Source of the DNA: Candidatus Harpocratesius repetitus | GTDB taxonomy: Archaea; Asgardarchaeota; Lokiarchaeia; Sigyniarchaeales; Promethearchaeaceae | Length of the DNA: 32,000 bases | Assembly (NCBI GenBank): GCA_021498095.1 | Contig: JAIZWK010000001.1 | Coordinates: 1,560,001 to 1,592,000 of the forward strand | Direction: 5' to 3' | Part shown: positions 13,701 through 25,154 of the stretch, piece after piece | How positions within the stretch are numbered: position 1 is the stretch's first letter | How the letters are laid out: each line of letters starts with the position of its first letter | The notes under the pieces: model-generated | Seen by the model: the letters and a program-made list of their open reading frames with translations, nothing else | What the model was told of the DNA's origin: nothing | Database searches by the model: none | Made by a program: the position numbers and the translations under genes

Positions 13701-14651
13701 TTACATTATCAATTCATAACCGCTTTTCAATTTAAATCTGGGTCTGAACTTTTTTGCCCACCTTATAAATTCTTCACGCAGTTCTTTTTCTGGAATTTGC
13801 TCCGCAGCAATTAACGCATAGTCCATAAATTTAATCCGCTCAGCGGTCCAGACGGTTTCAAAGCCATATTCTTCAAAAAATAGTTTCTCCCACTCTTTAT
13901 AGCGCTCGATATTCTTCTGCTTTCGGGGATGGATGAACGAATCAAAAATCAGCATGAAATTTTCGCTGTTTTCAAACTGGGTGCAGTCCCAGAACTCAAT
14001 CAGCAGAAATGAAATATGAGGAATATGAGGAAGATTTGAAATGTTAATCCATAATTCAGGATTATGGGTAAATTCAATCGGAATTTCCTTTACTTCGCGT
14101 AAACTATTTAATTTCAATTTTTCTAATGAAATGCAGAATGCCCAATTGATGGGAACCTGCTTCATGCGGTGCTTTCCATCGTTTTTGGGCGGCAGCGTTA
14201 TTTTTTCACCATCGAACATATTTGCATACCACTCGCAAAGAAAGTCTTCACCAATTGAAATTTCCCGCAGGCGATAGCAATGGGCGAAATCTATGTTGTA
14301 GTCATCTAAAACGGCAGCAATAGTTGTGAATTTCCTTAAATATTGGTATTGGTCGCACTTTAGGGGTATTTTTAGATTTGGAAATTCAAAAATTAGAATT
14401 GATTCTATTTTCGGCGGCCATTTAACCACCCGCAGCTGATTTTCTCCAGATATTTCAATTTCTTTACAGTTAATGAAAGCTGAAAAATCTGCTTCATTAT
14501 TGGGATAAATACAATCGTATGCTTCTAATTTATATACTTTATCAACATCTTTCCAATTTTTAACATCAAAATCCTGCCTAACCAGTGTTAATACTATTTT
14601 ATCGCTATAAATTTGACTGTATCTCACATATTTTGGATTTTCATTATGCAT
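13701..14651 (-). CDS. Hypothetical protein with degenerate leucine-rich-repeat-like segments
   Basis: 316-aa ORF; LxxLxL-like units (YRLREISIG, ISLEKLKLNSLREVKEIP, LWINISNLPHIP). Confidence 0.55.
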   Translation of the reverse strand: MHNENPKYVRYSQIYSDKIVLTLVRQDFDVKNWKDVDKVYKLEAYDCIYPNNEADFSAFINCKEIEISGENQLRVVKWPPKIESILIFEFPNLKIPLKCDQYQYLRKFTTIAAVLDDYNIDFAHCYRLREISIGEDFLCEWYANMFDGEKITLPPKNDGKHRMKQVPINWAFCISLEKLKLNSLREVKEIPIEFTHNPELWINISNLPHIPHISFLLIEFWDCTQFENSENFMLIFDSFIHPRKQKNIERYKEWEKLFFEEYGFETVWTAERIKFMDYALIAAEQIPEKELREEFIRWAKKFRPRFKLKSGYELIM

Positions 14652-14756
14652 AATGCTTCATCCATTTTTTTTCCATTTCCATTTATTTTCTTATCCAATG
14701 TATATTAAAAAAAAACGATATTAAAAAATTAACCCGCTCTTGGGCAGACCAATCTT

Positions 14757-16226
14757 CTATCCGACAAATCCCTCAATCGCATCCAAATATGCATCAAAAT
14801 TATTCATGGCACTTTCATCGGCATATTCTTCGTAGTACAAGCGCATTTCGTTCTTGTATTTCAAATAGTATGCGAAACACTGCTTCAGCATTAACAACTG
14901 TGAATTTGAATTGAAGATGCCTACAGGATTTTCAATCTGGGCATACCACCGGTCGAGTCGGGAGTCAAATTGAATGTTGCCGTTCTCATCTAAAGTGGGA
15001 ACGAAGTATTCAATTGATTTATCTTTACTTATTTTAATTGTTATGGTTTCACCTTTAACGCCGAATGCCTTGATGATTCCTTCGATTCGGTTCCATGTAG
15101 CAATGTATGCATTTCCTCCACCACCTCTTGCTTTCATCATCAACTTAATATCGTTGTAAAAACTTTTCATCTTTAAATTTGAATCTTTTAAATCCTGCTC
15201 GGATGAATGCAGCGTATACTGCTCATAAACCCACTTTGCAAGCACGGATACAGAGTCTCGAATGCTGGAGCCTTGAAATTCGGCAAGATTGCGTAGGTTG
15301 AAAAAGGCTCGACAGTCTTCAAGTTCAATCAGCACCATTTTAGAAGCGTCTCCACCAATTTTGTTTTTCATCATCTTCGTAAATGTATTAATACTTTCTT
15401 GATTATTAAATATGTTTATCATGGATAAGCCGTTCTGGAAGGCTGTCCACACCTTGCGCGCTTTTTTAGTATAATATTCAGTATTAGTTTCCTTTTTACC
15501 ATGCATTCCCACGCCGTAAATACCGGGATACCGCCAATTAACCGCACCGCCTTCCGCTCCGAGTAAGTTCAGCATATTCTCAAATACCAGAAAATCCATA
15601 ACGAAGCGCTCAATTCCATTATTTATATCGGGTCTATTGGTTTTATAATATTCTTCATTCACCGGGTCCCACAAATCTATGGAAAACTGCGGAATTATCA
15701 TGGAATAAGGCGAAGGCGTGGTGGGGACTATGTCTTTAACGGCATCTGAAATCGGGGTGCCGAGTTGGAAGAATTTAATTGTATGAGCCTTATCATTTTG
15801 AATTTGACCGACCATACTTCCGAACACCAGCACTTCTCTGCCGGAACCGATTACTTCGCTTTTAATCATTCCGAATTGTATGAAATTAGCAATAAAGGCG
15901 TTTTTTTTGGCACCGATAATGATAACTGGGTCGGGAAGGGCGCTGGGGGGCACGTAGTAGTGATGATCATCGACTACTTTTTCTTTTAAATATTTCTCAA
16001 TGTATTCATCATTTTTTTCACCTTTTCTTATATTATTTTCAATAAGATAGTCAATAGTAGAACGGAGTGCCTCGATATTGGTAAAATGGGATGCTAAAGA
16101 CAGCCAAACTGCCTGCTCCAGCTCCCATTCATGAATTTGAGGAGATACAAGTGAACTATCAATATTATTTAATCTTTTTTTTTCAATATATTGTAAATAT
16201 TCGCTGTATCCAAGTCTTTTCTGCAA
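14757..16226 (-). CDS. Hypothetical protein (489 aa from TTG; frame stays open to 16403)
   Basis: Long ORF, visibly more GC-rich than flanks; no family recognised; no ATG/GTG/TTG in the 59 open codons upstream. Confidence 0.65.
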   Translation of the reverse strand: MQKRLGYSEYLQYIEKKRLNNIDSSLVSPQIHEWELEQAVWLSLASHFTNIEALRSTIDYLIENNIRKGEKNDEYIEKYLKEKVVDDHHYYVPPSALPDPVIIIGAKKNAFIANFIQFGMIKSEVIGSGREVLVFGSMVGQIQNDKAHTIKFFQLGTPISDAVKDIVPTTPSPYSMIIPQFSIDLWDPVNEEYYKTNRPDINNGIERFVMDFLVFENMLNLLGAEGGAVNWRYPGIYGVGMHGKKETNTEYYTKKARKVWTAFQNGLSMINIFNNQESINTFTKMMKNKIGGDASKMVLIELEDCRAFFNLRNLAEFQGSSIRDSVSVLAKWVYEQYTLHSSEQDLKDSNLKMKSFYNDIKLMMKARGGGGNAYIATWNRIEGIIKAFGVKGETITIKISKDKSIEYFVPTLDENGNIQFDSRLDRWYAQIENPVGIFNSNSQLLMLKQCFAYYLKYKNEMRLYYEEYADESAMNNFDAYLDAIEGFVG

Positions 16227-16583
16227 AAATTGGGTTAAATAATCAGTAGCACCGCCGGGATTAACTGAAATTTTATGATCAGTATAACCACCTGCATCTT
16301 GGGAAATTTTGCTGATTCTATTTAAAATGAATTCAATTTGATTCCCATCCTTTTTCTGTTTGGCGGATGAAACTTTGGCATAAATATAGGTCGATTTTAT
16401 CGTTTACTCTGCTTGTTGGCTTGGAAGATTAACCGATTCTGGCAGAAAATCCGCCAATTGTTCCCATGAGTATCGACGATGATTTCCAAAAGTCCTTTTA
16501 GGAACGAGGTATCCTTTTTTGTCCCATCTGCGCAGAGTTGCAAGAGTAACTCCAAGAAGGCTTGAAATTTCGGAGATGGTCAA
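16227..16583 (-). pseudogene. IS607-family TnpA (MerR-HTH + serine recombinase N-terminus) remnant, in frame with 14757..16226
   Basis: Manual translation: LTISEISSLLGVTLATLRRWDKKGYLVPKRTFGNHRRYSWEQL...QQAE*TIKSTYIYAKVSSAKQKKDGNQIEFIL. Matches the IS607 TnpA HTH and the YARVSSxxQ motif; TAA at 16406-16404. Confidence 0.8.
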
Positions 16584-16608
16584 TATAGAATTAAATTTGG
16601 GGAAGATC

Positions 16609-16644
16609 TATATAAATTAAGCGATCAATGATCAAGTTTGATCA
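16609..16644 (+). promoter_or_regulatory. TATA-like box and palindromic candidate operator upstream of TetR gene
   Basis: TATATAAA at 16609-16616; TGATCAA-GT-TTGATCA at 16629-16644. Confidence 0.45.
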
Positions 16645-16682
16645 AAAATTTTTTTGCTGTTGATAAGTTCTCTGTAAATAAT

Positions 16683-17285
16683 ATGATGATAGATCGATCT
16701 GAGAATTTGGAGAAAAAAAGAGCAATTGCATTGAAATTTAAGGAGTATTTCTTCAATTTTGGAATGGTTGATACAATTATCAGCGATGTAACTCAAGATA
16801 TGCATATCAGTAAAAAAACCTTTTATAAATATTTTCCTGGAGGAAAACAAGATTGTTTGTATTTTATTTTCTACGATATTGCTAAAGACTCAAAAAGTGA
16901 AATAGAAAAAATTCTATCCGATAAAGCAAATTTTGCTAAAACTACATCTGCTGAGATTCTTTCTATCCTATTTCAGAAAATATATGAATTGGTTCTTCCC
17001 TTTATGTATGGAAATAAGGCTCAAACTAAAGAAGATTATCTGATCGAAAATCAGATTGTTGGAAATGCTTATGCAGATGTATTCAGTGATATTATTAAAC
17101 CGTTTCTAAGTCAAGGAAAAGAAGCAGATCAATTCCATTTTTCAAATTTAGATTTAACATATGAAGCAATAACCGCTATTGTGAAAAAAAGTATTGCATT
17201 GATCTATGATGTACAACATGAGAAATCCCAAGTCGCTGCAATTCAACAAGAAACAATAGAATTAATACTAAAAATACTAAATTAA
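16683..17285 (+). CDS. TetR/AcrR-family transcriptional regulator
   Basis: KRAIALKFKEYFFNFGMVDTIISDVTQDMHISKKTFYKYFPGGKQD is a TetR HTH; ATG 16683 preferred over TTG 16638. Confidence 0.85.
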   Translation: MMIDRSENLEKKRAIALKFKEYFFNFGMVDTIISDVTQDMHISKKTFYKYFPGGKQDCLYFIFYDIAKDSKSEIEKILSDKANFAKTTSAEILSILFQKIYELVLPFMYGNKAQTKEDYLIENQIVGNAYADVFSDIIKPFLSQGKEADQFHFSNLDLTYEAITAIVKKSIALIYDVQHEKSQVAAIQQETIELILKILN

Positions 17286-17322
17286 TTTAGTCCCTCAATA
17301 TATTATCTTATTGTCTCTGTAT

Positions 17323-19575
17323 TTATTTTTCTTTAAGAAATGCGAACTTATCAACTGTTAAATCAAGTAAACAATTTTTAATTGATAGAAGTTGTTGAAT
17401 TGTGGTAAGGTTTTGAATTACTAGCATGTCTTGAAATTCTGAATATTTTTCAATTTTATTAAAAGGTGTTTTTTGCCCACTTTTGATAGATTCACCTTTT
17501 TTGGTTGAATTGGGTTGTAATTTATAGCGAATGGTTAATTCTTTGAATGATGATGCCTGTAATTCGGTATACATTTTAATAATCGTCGATAATGGTACTG
17601 ATGCAAGAGGATCATGGAATCCAATGCGGTAATGTAATACTGGTTCCTGAAAAAGCTGCTGTGCTTTCTGATCTACAGGGATTAAAATGGAATTTGGAGG
17701 ATTTAGAAGTTCTTTTTGAGGATGAGCTTCTGCTAAAACATAATGAATTGGGTTATTTTCATTAAAATTTTGTTTATCCAGTAATTTTTGCATGAAATCC
17801 ATAATCTTTACTGCAAAAGTACGATTTTTCGTTTGCATTCGAATAAACAAATCAGTATGCATTAAAACCATTTCATCCATTCCATGAAATGAGACTGCTG
17901 CGATTATACTACCTTTAGGTAAAAAGCATTTTTGAGAAGAAGTTGATTTAAACAAAATTTCTTGTATTTGTTGCCAATTGGAAAAATTAGGTAAATTCCT
18001 CTTGAGTAATGTGTATTTATATTCAAAAAAATCAAATACTCTAAAAATTGCTTTTTCTAATCCTTTAAAAAATATCTTTTCGTTCTTATTTGATTTATAA
18101 TACAAAGCTAGAAGATTTATTGAAATTTTTTCAAGAATTACGGCAGGTTTAAACTGATCATAGTGCTCAATTGCGATTGGAATACGAAGATTGGTGTAAA
18201 TATGCTCTGCAGAAGGCCATCCCCATTTCATAAATTGATCGAATATGACTTGTGGATGTGGAAGAATCGATATTAAAAGTTGCTGAAATGAAGATAGTTT
18301 AGAGAATTCTGAAGCATTTTGAATTCCTTTAAAATCTGATTTTTGCCCATGTATTACCAAATTTGGAAGTTGAATTTCTCTCTGTGAAGAGTCGTTTTGT
18401 AAATATTTCCAATCATTTACATATATTTCTAATAAAGGTCTAATGTCTACATAATTTGCAATCAAAGAAATTCCTAATGAGATCTTCCAATTATCTGAAA
18501 AATAGGGGCTCCAGCTGGTGATTAATTGATTTAATTCTTGGACACGCTTAAAGCTTCTATCTATGCTAAAAAAATGTTCTAAAAATAAATCAAAGCGAAT
18601 AATGCTGATTCCCATAGGGAAAAATGGCTTTATTGTTTTGAAAAATGATTGTGTTGCTTGGATTAATTCATATAAACTTATCTTGTTCATAGAAATGTCT
18701 GTAGGATCTTCTTCTTGAATATAAACTCCTTTAGAATATATATTTTTAGAAAATTTGTATTTTTTATAATCGAATTTACGAATGAATCTGAGTATTATTA
18801 ATTCAAATTGATCTCCAGTAATAACCAGTTCAATTGGAGAAATTCCAAAATGACTTAACTTTACAAATAAAAAATCTCCGGACAAGAATGCATCTGCATA
18901 TTTTTGTTGCAACAAGTTAAGTAAAACGAATTGTTCCATAACATTTCGTCCCAAAATATCTTGAAATTGTGTTGGACTAAAACAATGTTTGGATATTAAT
19001 AGCTGCTTAACATCAAATGGGGGAAGACCTAACCGTGTGAGTTTGGCACGATAGTTTTCAAAATGATGTTCTATTAAAATAGCGTTGATGTATTCTCTAA
19101 CCAATGGTGCCGTAAGATATGTTATATTTGCCTTATTTAATCTTTGTTTTGCTTCAGTAGCAATTTCTTTAGCAATATCTAAAGGCATTCCCGCTTCTTC
19201 TTGAAGATGCTTTTCAATTACTGATTCGTCAAAAAATTCCATAGAATACTTGGAAGTTCGAATTCTGATAGGTGCTTCAGGAGTTACTACTTCTTCTACT
19301 GATTGAAGAAAATTTCGGGTTTTATTGCCCATTTCTGTTAATTGATATCCTTTCTCATCTCCTGAAATGATTAAATTCTCTTTAAGAATGCTTAAATGGT
19401 AAGAAAGATTTGGGGTTATGCCAAATCTATCTTCTAATTCATGCTGAATTTCGCTGTATTCAAGAGGTGTCTTGTGTTGGCTGAGAATCTGAACAATAGC
19501 TATTCGTGCTTCATTTTTAAGCGCACCTAAATACTTTACTAATGGATCAATCGAATTTTCAGATTTTGCAGTCAT
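17323..19575 (-). CDS. ArsR-type wHTH + ATP-cone + degenerate class III ribonucleotide reductase (NrdD)-like domain
   Basis: ALKNEARIAIVQIL...NLSYHLSILKENLIISGDEKGYQLTEMG (wHTH); IRTSKYSMEFFDESVIEKHLQEEAG...LTAPLVREYINAILIE (ATP-cone); LTRLGLPPFDV and ISINLLALYY resemble archaeal NrdD; no CxxC pairs or C-terminal RxxGY. Confidence 0.75.
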   Translation of the reverse strand: MTAKSENSIDPLVKYLGALKNEARIAIVQILSQHKTPLEYSEIQHELEDRFGITPNLSYHLSILKENLIISGDEKGYQLTEMGNKTRNFLQSVEEVVTPEAPIRIRTSKYSMEFFDESVIEKHLQEEAGMPLDIAKEIATEAKQRLNKANITYLTAPLVREYINAILIEHHFENYRAKLTRLGLPPFDVKQLLISKHCFSPTQFQDILGRNVMEQFVLLNLLQQKYADAFLSGDFLFVKLSHFGISPIELVITGDQFELIILRFIRKFDYKKYKFSKNIYSKGVYIQEEDPTDISMNKISLYELIQATQSFFKTIKPFFPMGISIIRFDLFLEHFFSIDRSFKRVQELNQLITSWSPYFSDNWKISLGISLIANYVDIRPLLEIYVNDWKYLQNDSSQREIQLPNLVIHGQKSDFKGIQNASEFSKLSSFQQLLISILPHPQVIFDQFMKWGWPSAEHIYTNLRIPIAIEHYDQFKPAVILEKISINLLALYYKSNKNEKIFFKGLEKAIFRVFDFFEYKYTLLKRNLPNFSNWQQIQEILFKSTSSQKCFLPKGSIIAAVSFHGMDEMVLMHTDLFIRMQTKNRTFAVKIMDFMQKLLDKQNFNENNPIHYVLAEAHPQKELLNPPNSILIPVDQKAQQLFQEPVLHYRIGFHDPLASVPLSTIIKMYTELQASSFKELTIRYKLQPNSTKKGESIKSGQKTPFNKIEKYSEFQDMLVIQNLTTIQQLLSIKNCLLDLTVDKFAFLKEK

Positions 19576-20285
19576 AAAATAACCATTCCGCTTTAAGAAA
19601 TATGGAAGAGAATTTAATATATGAATAAGAGTAATCTAAACCAATAAATCCTATGATTTTTTCAATATAAATCTCAAAAGAATTTCAGAATAGACAAAAA
19701 ACGACAAAATATTCAAATAACAACACAGAAAGAATTTATTTTTCTAAATCAAGAATAAAAATACCCGTAAATTTTTCATCTTTTATAAAAATTTACAAAA
19801 ATTCTCTCTCTATGCGAGATCAACAGATTTTGATTCGAGAAATCGACTTTTTTATAATTAACTTTCCAGAAAATTTATGTCTAAAGATTTTAAAAAAACC
19901 TCATAATCAAAAATATGATATCAAGTCTTCAATTAAGGGTGAATTCTTCAATTCCCCGATTTTCAAATTAAAAAATTTAGAATTCTCCCAGTTTAAGCAA
20001 CTTCTGCAAATTTTTGAAAAAAAATGATATTTTTACCAAAGTAAAATTAAATGAATTTGAAAATCTTGCTGATTATCGAAACCATACTAAAAATGCTATA
20101 CGATTTGTCAGCTGGGCTCTATTGGCAATATTTGCATCTTGATTATAAATATCATATTTCTTTATCTTAATGGAGATCCATCAAAAATAGAGCGGCATAG
20201 GAAAATATATTTCATGCAAATTATTTCAATTATAATTTTTGCTTTAATTAATATAAGCTTATATATTTTTGCTCTAACTTTATAA

Positions 20286-20440
20286 ATCACCTTTTTTCAT
20301 ATAAAAATAATTGATAACGTTGGGGAAAATACGGATGATTCAAATGAAAATGGTAGTAAAACAGGATTGATCATCGGAATTAGTGGCGGAGTAACCCTTT
20401 TAGGCGCTGGAGGTTTTATTCTCTTCAGAAAGATGAAAAT
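20286..20440 (+). pseudogene. Start-less C-terminal membrane-anchor fragment
   Basis: NTDDSNENGSKTGLIIGISGGVTLLGAGGFILFRKMK (acidic linker, TM helix, basic tail). In-frame stop at 20283-20285 and no start codon between it and the TM segment. Confidence 0.4.
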
Positions 20441-20495
20441 AGAAAAAATAATTTCCTTTTTTTAATTATTCTTTGTTGGATGAACATTTAATGAA

Positions 20496-20518
20496 TTGTA
20501 CAAAATTTCTTTGTACAA
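20496..20518. terminator. Hairpin downstream of pyrB
   Basis: TTGTACAAA-ATTTC-TTTGTACAA, 9-bp stem and 5-nt loop, 17 nt past the pyrB stop. Confidence 0.35.
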
Positions 20519-20535
20519 ATGATATTGTAATATTG

Positions 20536-21471
20536 CTATTTTAATGTTTTCGGATCTTGAAGCAAAATACTGGCCAAAATCGCTTTTCGCATCATCAATC
20601 CAAAATATGTTTGCTTAAAATACTGTGCACGAGGATCTGAATCTATTTTTGGGTCGATTTCATTTACTCGGGGTAGCGGATGTAGAATAATTGCATCCTG
20701 CTTGATTTGTTTTAAATCATCCTTTGTAAGAATGAAAAGATCTTTGACCTTATCATACTCTTCTAAATCTCCAAACCTCTCTTTCTGGATGCGCGTCATA
20801 TAGATTACATCCAATTTTGGAAGTGTTTCATGAAAATCTTGTGTTTCAATAAAGTTTGTTCCCTTTAAAGTTAAAGAATCCTTTACTCGATACTGCATTC
20901 TCAACTGCTCAGGACTGATGAAAAATAGGTTTGAGTCAAAATTTGATAAAAGATGAGCTAAAGAATGCACAGTCCTACCGTATTTGAGATCCCCTATTAA
21001 ACCAATATTCAAATTATCTAGTGATCCTTTTAATTCTTTTATTGTAAGTAAATCCAACAATCCTTGAGTTGGATGTTCTTGGGATCCATTTCCTGCATTG
21101 ATAATTGGAACATCTGAAAATTCTTGAGCTAATTTTGCTGCTCCCTCTTTCTTATGCCGAATAACAATTGTATCTGCATAATTTGCCACAGTTCGAATTG
21201 TATCTGCTAGTGTTTCTCCCTTTTTAACCGATGAAGTGCCTGCTTCAGAAAAACCCATTACTCTTCCACCAAGATGTAACATGGCGCTCTCAAAAGACAA
21301 GCGCGTTCGAGTTGAAGGTTCAAAGAACAAAGTTGCCATTACTTTTCCTTGTAAAATTTGTGAATATTGCTTTTTATTTTGCTCGATTGTTGTGGCTAAG
21401 TCGATTAATGTTTCAATATCACTCCGTTCAAATTGCTTGGCGGAGATGACATCCATGTTGTAAAATTCCAT
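20536..21471 (-). CDS. pyrB: Aspartate carbamoyltransferase catalytic subunit
   Basis: FFEPSTRTRLSFE, KKGETLADT, HPTQGLLD, GDLKYGRTVHSL, HPLPRVNEI; ATG 21471 preferred over TTG 21519. Confidence 0.96.
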   Translation of the reverse strand: MEFYNMDVISAKQFERSDIETLIDLATTIEQNKKQYSQILQGKVMATLFFEPSTRTRLSFESAMLHLGGRVMGFSEAGTSSVKKGETLADTIRTVANYADTIVIRHKKEGAAKLAQEFSDVPIINAGNGSQEHPTQGLLDLLTIKELKGSLDNLNIGLIGDLKYGRTVHSLAHLLSNFDSNLFFISPEQLRMQYRVKDSLTLKGTNFIETQDFHETLPKLDVIYMTRIQKERFGDLEEYDKVKDLFILTKDDLKQIKQDAIILHPLPRVNEIDPKIDSDPRAQYFKQTYFGLMMRKAILASILLQDPKTLK

Positions 21472-21851
21472 TTTCCAACCAATACAAAGCGCGACTTTTT
21501 TTATGATTTTTGCTTTCAAGTAACAACCAAGTAATACCTTTTTTTCTGATTTTAATATGAAATTCTATTTGCTAATCTATTTGGCTTTCTATAGATGCAC
21601 ATTTAAACAAACAAAATCAAGCAAAAATCATGAATTTCATCGCCAATTATCAATCTAGATATATCCCGCTAAATAATGAGATATTATCCTATTGTTACCA
21701 AGAATGGAATTTCAATCTCCCTATTAGTAGAAAAAATTCCAACTCTATACTCGATAAATCATACGGTTATCTTCTTTGATCTCTCAAATCAAAAAATTAA
21801 AAATTCATGCCATCTTTTCATACCTATCAGAATTTCGTTGAAGGAATTATT

Positions 21852-22133
21852 ATGAAATTTCCCAAATCTAAACGCATTTACTGCCCAAAGTGTAAAGAAC
21901 ACACAGACCATAAAGTCTCAATATACAAAAAAGGAAAAGATACTCAATCCGCTCAAGGCGCAAGAAGATATGCACGAAAAAAACGGGGCTATGGATCGCA
22001 ACCTAAGCCTATTCAGCATAACCAAGCCAAGGTTAATAAAAAGACAACACCTACCTATAAATGCACCAAATGTAATCGAGTCGTAATTGGCAAGGGATTG
22101 CGCTTGAAGAAATTCGAGATCTTAACCAAATAA
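21852..22133 (+). CDS. rpl44e: Ribosomal protein eL42 (L44e)
   Basis: MKFPKSKRIYCPKCKEHTDH, RRYARKKRGYGSQPKP, CTKC. Confidence 0.95.
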   Translation: MKFPKSKRIYCPKCKEHTDHKVSIYKKGKDTQSAQGARRYARKKRGYGSQPKPIQHNQAKVNKKTTPTYKCTKCNRVVIGKGLRLKKFEILTK

Positions 22134-22154
22134 TCAAAAAAGAGGAAGAAAATC

Positions 22155-22355
22155 ATGAAAGCAAAAAAATCCGAATTAGTGCCCAAACCAAAAAGTCGAT
22201 TTTTACGAATTAAATGTTTGAATTGCGGTGCCGAGCAAATTGTGTTCGGTTGTGCGACAGTTGAAGTGAAATGCTTTGTCTGTGACAAGCAATTAGTTCA
22301 ATCTACCGGTGGAAAGGCACGAATTTTAACAAAAATTTCTGAAGTTTTATCATAA
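22155..22355 (+). CDS. rps27e: Ribosomal protein eS27
   Basis: PKPKSRFLRIKCLNCGAEQIVF...CFVCDKQLVQSTGGKA; follows rpl44e. Confidence 0.95.
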   Translation: MKAKKSELVPKPKSRFLRIKCLNCGAEQIVFGCATVEVKCFVCDKQLVQSTGGKARILTKISEVLS

Positions 22356-22476
22356 AATATTATTTAAAATATCACCAATCTTTTTTTTCCAAATCCTTGA
22401 AGGAATCAACATAACATATTTATGATTCTTTCCTTATTCCCAATTATCTTTAAATCTTATAACAGGCGATTGAATA

Positions 22477-22827
22477 ATGGTTGAATTCTGTCCAAATTGT
22501 GAAAAATTGCTTCGAAAGAAGAAAAATGACCAGGGCGAATATGTGATGATGTGTGTAGCGTGCGGATATTCGAAACCAATTGAAAAAAAGAGAGAGCGTA
22601 AACATAAATTATCAAAACGAATTGAAAAGAAAATCGCCGATAATAAAACACGCGTCTTAGACGAAAAAAGTGATAATTTAGAACTTAAGCCAAAAACACG
22701 GGTCGAGTGTCCTGAATGTGGGTATTTTGAAGCGTATTACGAGCAATATCAGACTCGATCGGCGGATGAACCTGCCACAACATTTTATTCATGTGTTCGT
22801 TGTAAACATCGTTGGCGGGAGTATTAA
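22477..22827 (+). CDS. tfs: Transcript cleavage factor TFS (RpoM/TFIIS-like)
   Basis: Two Zn ribbons (CPNC...CVAC; CPEC...CVRC) and QTRSADEP acidic hairpin. Confidence 0.92.
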   Translation: MVEFCPNCEKLLRKKKNDQGEYVMMCVACGYSKPIEKKRERKHKLSKRIEKKIADNKTRVLDEKSDNLELKPKTRVECPECGYFEAYYEQYQTRSADEPATTFYSCVRCKHRWREY

Positions 22828-24806: not shown

Positions 24807-25154
24807 TTATTGGATTTCCTTAAATTTCTCCATGGTTTTCAAATAGAAATTAAAATCCAATTCTTGCATGTCTTGAATAATTTGAGCAGCAATTACTGGA
24901 GTCCCAGTTCCATCAACTTCATACTTTCCGAAGACTCTATATAGATTTCCCTCTGTTATTTTGGGTGCGTCATCTGGGATATTTTGGGTTTGAATTTTAC
25001 CTGTTGTATCATCAATGTAAAAATCGTTATTTGCATTTATGTTACGAGCATAACCTGTCAGTTGGACCAAACCATCAGTGGGTTGAAGGTCTTTTACAAG
25101 TTTTTTTTCATAATACTGATCAGAACGCATTTCTTCTGGAGTAAATTCAGCCAT
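24807..25154 (-). CDS. Single OB-fold protein, RPA3/RPA14-like replication protein A small subunit
   Basis: VQLTG...FYIDDTTG...YRVFG...AAQIIQDM followed by a C-terminal helix; pattern recalled from euryarchaeal RPA14 (WLDDGTG, VRVIG, AEVIQDF). Confidence 0.68.
   Translation of the reverse strand: MAEFTPEEMRSDQYYEKKLVKDLQPTDGLVQLTGYARNINANNDFYIDDTTGKIQTQNIPDDAPKITEGNLYRVFGKYEVDGTGTPVIAAQIIQDMQELDFNFYLKTMEKFKEIQ

Follow-up and report, generated by a model that had tools for sequence, protein, structure and literature searches.

A pyrB-linked fusion of winged helix, ATP-cone and inactive NrdD-type barrel in Asgard archaea: a probable regulator of nucleotide supply

What does an archaeon do with a protein that has the core of an anaerobic ribonucleotide reductase (RNR), the front end of a transcription factor and a gene for pyrimidine synthesis as its neighbour? 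The question is raised by a gene, here called X, in a 32,000-nucleotide stretch (the window, G000:C1:1560001-1592000) of the single-contig 4.36-Mb genome of Candidatus Harpocratesius repetitus, a member of the same family as Promethearchaeum syntrophicum MK-D1 and Ca. Lokiarchaeum ossiferum. We propose that X is a pseudoenzyme that senses nucleotides and regulates transcription in connection with pyrimidine and deoxynucleotide synthesis, similar to NrdR in its logic and unrelated to it; arguing in part by analogy, we put the probability of this reading at roughly 0.55. The main new finding is the near-universal pairing of X with pyrB, the gene for the catalytic chain of aspartate carbamoyltransferase (ATCase): the two genes are directly adjacent in 76 of the 80 GTDB species loci, which cover Loki-, Thor-, Hermod-, Hod-, Odin- and Baldrarchaeia, and in two of the four exceptions (L028 and L089) X lies within approximately 230 bp of a contig end, so that its upstream side is missing. 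The original prediction had mentioned pyrB only in passing as a nearby gene, and this adjacency is now the strongest functional clue.

X is one uninterrupted open reading frame (ORF) of 750 codons, as read from the ORF list and its translation. It is not a chance ORF, because its nearest named relative, from Candidatus Harpocratesius sp., is 90% identical and relatives are encoded in 417 GTDB species genomes, those of Asgard archaea, Bathyarchaeia and Nitrososphaerales among them (approximately 600 cluster representatives at E values up to 1e-3). Three Pfam domains were located in the protein, namely DUF7347 (PF24038, residues 17-85, 35.7 bits against a cut-off of 27.6, E 1e-8), a weak and sub-threshold ATP-cone (PF03477, residues 104-177, 15 bits) and a partial NRDD domain (PF13597, residues 482-605, 34.7 bits against a cut-off of 26.2), the last matching X alone in this genome. 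The corresponding NCBIfam models remained under their cut-offs, far under in the case of the NrdD model TIGR02487 (29.1 bits against 326), and at 24.5 bits against 55 for the ArsR-type helix-turn-helix model NF033788. A full-length phmmer search against the PDB returned only matches to periplasmic binding proteins, which we judged spurious.

The AlphaFold2 model of X, built on 102 homologues, has a predicted local distance difference test score (pLDDT) of 87 and a predicted TM-score of 0.80. Foldseek places its best PDB matches solely among class III RNRs, at E 1e-14 to 1e-9. With VIA-align, it superposes on the NrdD of P. copri (8p27) with Z 26.2 and a root-mean-square deviation of 3.3 Å over 454 residues, and on that of T4 (1h78) with Z 25.6, followed by class I RNRs (Z of approximately 18) and other glycyl-radical enzymes (Z of approximately 17); on cone-bearing NrdD structures, the alignment begins at residues 100-114. 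The first 100 residues, which contain no cysteine, were also modelled alone (pLDDT 92.5), and their Foldseek neighbours are SmtB, BigR, CadC, ArsR, CzrA and HlyU (TM 0.6-0.7). The family profile of this winged helix-turn-helix (wHTH) agrees, matching ArsR 6j05 (E 1e-6), CzrA, HlyU and CadC, and it aligns the S-x-H-L-x-x-L recognition helix with that of 6j05; in X this signature reads S-Y-H-L-x-x-L, and its residues H60, L61 and L64 vary little or not at all. The domain has the alpha1-alpha2-alpha3-alphaR-beta-beta-alpha5 arrangement of ArsR/SmtB regulators. The fusion of an N-terminal ArsR-like wHTH, an ATP-cone and a C-terminal RNR-like region, which the original prediction had proposed from the letters alone, is thus borne out in an intact frame, with the wHTH of ArsR/SmtB type by both profile and fold and approximately 550 residues of NrdD fold behind the cone.

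The cone deserves separate attention, since it is the best-conserved module of the family. Its sequence and fold are those of a four-helix cone with an N-terminal beta-hairpin. Together with the first barrel strand, it is 30% identical to canonical Lokiarchaeial NrdD (E 8e-17), and its weak Pfam score can be attributed to divergence of the lineage, because the cone of the canonical Lokiarchaeial NrdD is likewise below the Pfam cut-off (24.5 bits); relatives of X also carry precomputed PF03477 matches. When 101 relatives are compared with P0001, the cone averages 54% identity, the linker with the first strand 41% and the wHTH 33%, and the barrel drops to 14-27%. Invariant columns are concentrated in the cone (R106, T107, S108, E113, F115, E127, R160, E161 and R176 being invariant or nearly so) and in the linker, including R181-P185. 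This conservation suggests that the cone of X may bind ATP or dATP.

Is the barrel that follows still an enzyme? For the alignment, canonical NrdDs of related Lokiarchaeia were taken as the reference (P0225 scores 489 bits on PF13597). Against them, SGDFLFVKL of X aligns with SGDIHVHML, ISINL with SISVNLPR and SFHGMDE with GFVGLNE, which confirms as eroded NrdD landmarks the three motifs named at the outset. The position of the second active-site cysteine in the first barrel strand (Cys79 in T4) falls in SPIEL in X against RPFCQ in the canonical enzyme, and no cysteine of X (HIYTNLRIPI) aligns with the thiyl-radical cysteine of the finger loop (SQCCR in Lokiarchaeial NrdD). X ends directly after the last barrel strand and is therefore without a Zn ribbon and without RVxGY; it has three cysteines in total, all unconserved, and no CxxC. 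What the barrel keeps is Asn487 (in ISINL) and Gly565/Glu568 (in GMDE). A column survey of 198 aligned relatives, each of at least 560 aa, extends this pattern to the family: the strand cysteine occurs in none and the finger-loop cysteine in at most three, while the pocket Asn is kept in 193 and the Gly of GxxE in 190. The Zn ribbon is kept in 77 relatives, none of those seen from Asgard archaea, and Gly occupies the radical column in 31. No NrdG activase scored above the cut-off in the 4.36-Mb genome (best TIGR02495 match 60 bits against 131), and of 41 relatives only 14, each with canonical NrdD as well, had NrdG2 above its cut-off. Judged by its sequence, X is catalytically dead as a class III RNR. 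The low cysteine count, the missing CxxC pairs and terminal glycyl-radical motif and the lack of a nearby activase had all been read correctly from the sequence; the loss of the catalytic Cys and Gly is now established by alignment and the activase result extends to the whole genome.

Two observations on related barrels may be recorded here. Five non-Asgard family members (P0150, P0153, P0158, P0147 and P0163) have no catalytic cysteines but keep the Zn ribbon and an S-R-x-x-G C-terminal motif, and may represent intermediate stages in which the radical domain was decaying. Other Lokiarchaeial genomes (L017:951-2741, L018:901-2709) encode a third NrdD paralogue, of approximately 600 aa, with an ATP-cone and barrel (PF13597, 232 bits) and neither wHTH, finger-loop cysteine nor C-terminal Zn/Gly domain. 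This paralogue is a second dead NrdD, seemingly independent, and accompanies canonical NrdD and X in many genomes of family f3.

Deoxynucleotides are provided for elsewhere in the genome. A search with PF02867 (class I/II RNR) gave no match, which suggested X as the sole RNR-like gene, a possibility ruled out by a search with the adenosylcobalamin-dependent ribonucleoside-triphosphate reductase (RTPR) of MK-D1, a 763-aa ORF scoring 415 bits on TIGR02505. The class II RTPR of this genome lies at G000:C1:524429-526699, is 79% identical to the MK-D1 enzyme and has the NPCGE finger loop and the C-terminal CDGDSC pair. With this intact B12-dependent RTPR, the separate RNR that the original prediction had proposed to look for, X is not needed for dNTP synthesis. 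The RTPR (L015) has 867 aa, with an extra leucine-rich-repeat-like tail of approximately 105 aa after CDGDSC that is not in the MK-D1 enzyme. A stand-alone ATP-cone-like domain (G000:C1:1282988-1283251, L016) was also observed in an ORF of 187 aa (23.6 bits on PF03477, 34% identity to the RTPR cone).

If X is not a reductase, its neighbours may tell what it is for. A convergent arrangement of X and pyrB was counted in 67 loci (a second tally, which puts the window among nine co-directional loci, gives 68), in the order S7, X, reversed pyrB, L44e. In the clade of the window, X is inverted and comes after pyrB, reading in the same direction; the two are 16 bp apart in MK-D1 and 960 bp apart in the window, where the interval has only tiny ORFs, none of them convincing. 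This spacer must hold the promoter of X, unless X is read through from pyrB; a scan for bacterial-type promoters and terminators gave background levels at this locus, and nothing credible was found by Rfam at 16000-22500. The spacer is perhaps what an insertion or rearrangement left behind. Between S7 and X, at 13701-17285 of the window, stand three ORFs without Pfam matches (316, 489 and 215 aa), where other Asgard genomes have S7 followed directly by X; they fit a local insertion or rearrangement accompanying the inversion of X. In an MK-D1 run labelled as RNA, one contig spans pyrB, X and a DUF72 gene, although the same library also gives contigs of 10-90 kb and may contain DNA. The start of pyrB is likely the ATG at 21471, by alignment of the N-terminus with 44 orthologues, its longest ORF opening at TTG 21519.

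A candidate operator was found in the promoters of orthologues, as part of an architecture conserved phylum-wide. In 55 of the 68 loci of the convergent clade, a direct repeat, ATATCACC-N3-ATATTATC, with a period of 11 nt and three copies in a few loci, occurs approximately 120 nt upstream of the start of X. It is followed, approximately 45 nt downstream, by a B recognition element and TATA box (TCCTAAATTTTTATATA), and a further ATATTAT box (CATATTATTTAGTTAAGCAG) stands immediately after the TATA box, close to where transcription is expected to start. A position weight matrix of the repeat gave 58 matches in X promoters against two elsewhere in approximately 1 Mb of flanks. On a genomic scale, the scan of three Asgard genomes was near control in two and reached 42 matches against 15 in the third (G043), and the exact matches inspected lay beside a hydrolase and an aldo-keto reductase; the genome of the window had 17 weak matches (control: five), and no pyr or nrd gene had one, nor did X. 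Within the clade of the window, the regions upstream of pyrB and X are too diverged for a footprinting alignment. In the divergent pyrB-L44e intergenic region of L033-L103, we also observed a strongly conserved ATAAATTTTAAATTTTATTAGTTCTG and, proximal to pyrB, TTAATAAAAAATAATTTAAAT ... CATAATnTTAATAAAAC, which are probably the two core promoters.

Several of these results weigh against a nucleotide-sensing regulator of pyrB and RNR genes. The repeat is missing from the window's own locus and clade, and it was not found upstream of pyrB, at the RNR loci examined or upstream of other nucleotide genes, where a different motif may apply. It is at most an indirect hint of sequence-specific DNA binding by X; it is compatible with autoregulation, defines no regulon and may instead be the site of some other factor. 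The classic layout of a regulator and its target is not a convergent gene pair, and several distant members of the family (P0078, P0118, P0150, P0158 and a Lokiarchaeial subfamily of approximately 775 aa) are not beside pyrB. The cone of X, moreover, has R-T in the alignment where classical cones have K-R, which bears on the identity of its ligand.

Part of this evidence can be turned into a different account, in which X is a DNA-binding regulator whose link to nucleotides is incidental, the adjacency to pyrB being inherited synteny and the cone and barrel a mere scaffold. X does lie within a housekeeping block that is syntenic across Asgard archaea (RNAP - S12 - S7 - X - pyrB - L44e - S27e - TFS), the promoter motif is unique to X and, as said, the pairing with pyrB is not shared by every member. 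We nevertheless regard this account as improbable. The pair has outlasted the local inversion of X in the window's clade, and it recurs amid a different surrounding block outside Asgard archaea: it is found, convergent, in two of the three Bathyarchaeia contigs looked up (with pyrI after the pair in one, and AMP phosphorylase and type III RuBisCO nearby in another), and in Nitrososphaerales the gene after X encodes a class II RNR of 1045 aa, beyond which lies a convergent pyrB. Neither would a mere scaffold be expected to have the ATP-cone as its most constrained module or to keep its pocket Asn so consistently.

The same neighbourhood invites a second alternative, that X acts at the protein level, binding ATCase (PyrB) or class II RNR and relaying nucleotide status to it allosterically, its wHTH serving protein contacts or oligomerisation. 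The tight, phylum-spanning adjacency, which is operon-like in MK-D1, and the place of X directly before class II RNR in Nitrososphaerales would suit it, as would the fact that pyrI, the usual regulatory chain of ATCase, is unlinked from pyrB in this genome (G000:C1:688073-688351, approximately 0.9 Mb away), pyrB being paired in these Asgard archaea with X instead. However, pyrI is present in 35 of 41 relatives, this genome included, and therefore the regulatory role is already filled; most lineages have X and pyrB convergent, not co-transcribed; and the wHTH keeps both the ArsR recognition-helix signature and the fold of a DNA binder. We consider this account quite improbable. A predicted complex of X(100-750) with PyrB scored 0.00, which is evidence neither for nor against.

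That X is still an enzyme, either a reductase with its radical supplied in trans or a non-radical enzyme that modifies or binds nucleotides, seems very unlikely to us: the Zn ribbon and SR-x-x-G-like C-terminus of some non-Asgard members, the Gly in the radical column of a minority and the conserved pocket residues (Asn, GxxE) speak for it, but X itself ends before the Gly loop, places none of its cysteines at either catalytic position and belongs to a genome with an RTPR and no NrdG, and we know of no RNR chemistry without a thiyl radical. A decaying, functionless relic of an RNR, as the strong divergence of the barrel might suggest, is barely credible, being already contradicted by the conservation of X, with its intact frame, invariant residues, closely similar sister and wide distribution, and by its confidently folded model.

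Returning to the nucleotide-sensing regulator, a route and a mechanism can be envisaged. An ancestral class III RNR bearing an ATP-cone would have gained an N-terminal ArsR-type winged helix and lost its radical chemistry, that is, the thiyl cysteine and its partner and, in Asgard lineages, also the Zn ribbon and the glycyl-radical loop. What remains under selection is the winged helix, the cone, the linker that leads into barrel strand one and, in the barrel itself, a few residues of the pocket. We infer that X dimerises, binds nucleotide and DNA and has nucleotide-synthesis genes as targets; by analogy with NrdR and with the control of NrdD by its cone, the barrel may dimerise as in NrdD and hold a pair of winged helices. 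Binding of ATP or dATP by the cone, perhaps together with a nucleotide in what was once the active or specificity site, would shift the oligomeric state or the orientation of the domains, which in turn would alter DNA binding. X could thus tune transcription of its own gene and of genes for nucleotide synthesis, the prime candidates being pyrB and, wherever it is linked, class II RNR. Its remit is likely to comprise pyrimidine and deoxynucleotide synthesis, beyond RNR genes alone, and the neighbourhoods fit a primary link to pyrimidine synthesis and a secondary one to RNR.

A bolder version of this proposal can be offered only tentatively. X might be the main nucleotide-pool regulator of Asgard and TACK archaea and the counterpart there of NrdR, a whole RNR turned into a multi-site sensor (the cone together with the former specificity and active sites) that couples pyrB to deoxynucleotide synthesis and is older than the split of the phyla. 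NrdR, which often autoregulates, is rare in archaea (PMC9110341), and therefore a niche is left for X.

The family is probably an undescribed archaeal regulator of nucleotide supply. No published description of it was found in the literature searched, in agreement with the earlier remark that no characterisation was known, and the expectation that similar fusions occur in other archaea is amply borne out by its distribution. All of the originally proposed checks open to computation favoured the prediction. To our knowledge, the control of RNR and nucleotide-synthesis genes in archaea is largely unknown, and the near-universal pairing offers pyrB as a concrete first target candidate for X. Both cultured Asgard archaea that were examined, P. 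syntrophicum MK-D1 and Ca. L. ossiferum, have members of the family, so the proposal can be tested at the bench. If true, X would clearly exemplify how a large radical enzyme can be put to new use as a transcription factor that senses a ligand. The present analysis also corrects the label of many family members as 'anaerobic ribonucleoside-triphosphate reductase', which wrongly credits genomes such as this one, reliant on a B12-dependent class II enzyme, with class III RNR capacity.

The coordinates of X, its domains and its surroundings are collected in Table 1. Elsewhere in the window, at 24807-25154 on the minus strand, a 115-aa ORF has a sub-threshold match (24.5 bits against 27) to Ten1_2, the oligonucleotide/oligosaccharide-binding fold of a subunit of the telomere-capping CST complex.

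Table 1. Position of gene X, its domains, neighbouring features and the promoter elements of its orthologues (window coordinates unless stated otherwise)
Feature	Position	Strand	Extent and remarks	Basis
Gene X, wHTH / ATP-cone / dead-NrdD fusion	17323..19575	-	750 aa; stop codon 17323-17325	ORF list, Pfam, full-length homologues
ArsR/SmtB-type winged helix-turn-helix (DUF7347)	19285..19548	-	X residues 10-97	Profile and fold
ATP-cone	19036..19272	-	X residues 102-180	Identity to canonical NrdD cone, conservation
Linker (KLTRLGLPPFD) and ten-stranded NrdD-type barrel	17326..19035	-	X residues 181-750	VIA-align, model range 197-750
AT-rich spacer between pyrB and X	19576..20535	unstranded	960 bp	No convincing ORF, no Rfam match
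pyrB (aspartate carbamoyltransferase catalytic chain)	20536..21471	-	Upstream of X, same strand	PF02729 and PF00185
Promoter architecture ATATCACC-N3-ATATTATC, TCCTAAATTTTTATATA, CATATTATTTAGTTAAGCAG	L033-L103, about -120 to -45 from X start codon			

Compared with known systems, X shares with the NrdDs of known structure (1h78, 8p27 and 4coj of T. maritima) the cone and the ten-stranded barrel (Z 22-26), the first-strand motif, the Asn of INL and the GxxE motif, and differs from them by the absence of the thiyl cysteine, its partner cysteine, the Zn ribbon, the glycyl-radical loop and the activase, and by the extra N-terminal wHTH. The latter domain resembles, by profile and by fold, recognition helix included, those of the ArsR/SmtB metalloregulators (ArsR 6j05, CzrA, CadC and SmtB), but X has no metal-binding Cys/His motifs, and its sensor modules are the ATP-cone and the RNR barrel. 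With NrdR, X has in common a DNA-binding domain joined to an ATP-cone, which in NrdR reads ATP and dATP, and in Nitrososphaerales a place beside an RNR gene. The two are nevertheless distinct, as had been anticipated: NrdR has approximately 150 aa and binds DNA through a Zn ribbon, whereas X has an ArsR-type wHTH and a dead RNR barrel of 550 aa, with no CxxC and, in Asgard archaea, no Zn ribbon; no regulon resembling that of the NrdR box was found, and the dominant neighbour is pyrB, not nrd. Finally, the Nudix-related regulators of NAD metabolism, NrtR, are reported to combine an enzyme-fold effector with a winged helix and to be encoded by a gene misannotated as the enzyme (PMC2330246). NrtR is bacterial and has other folds, ligands and domain order, but it offers a precedent for what we propose for X, an enzyme scaffold turned into a metabolite-sensing transcription factor.

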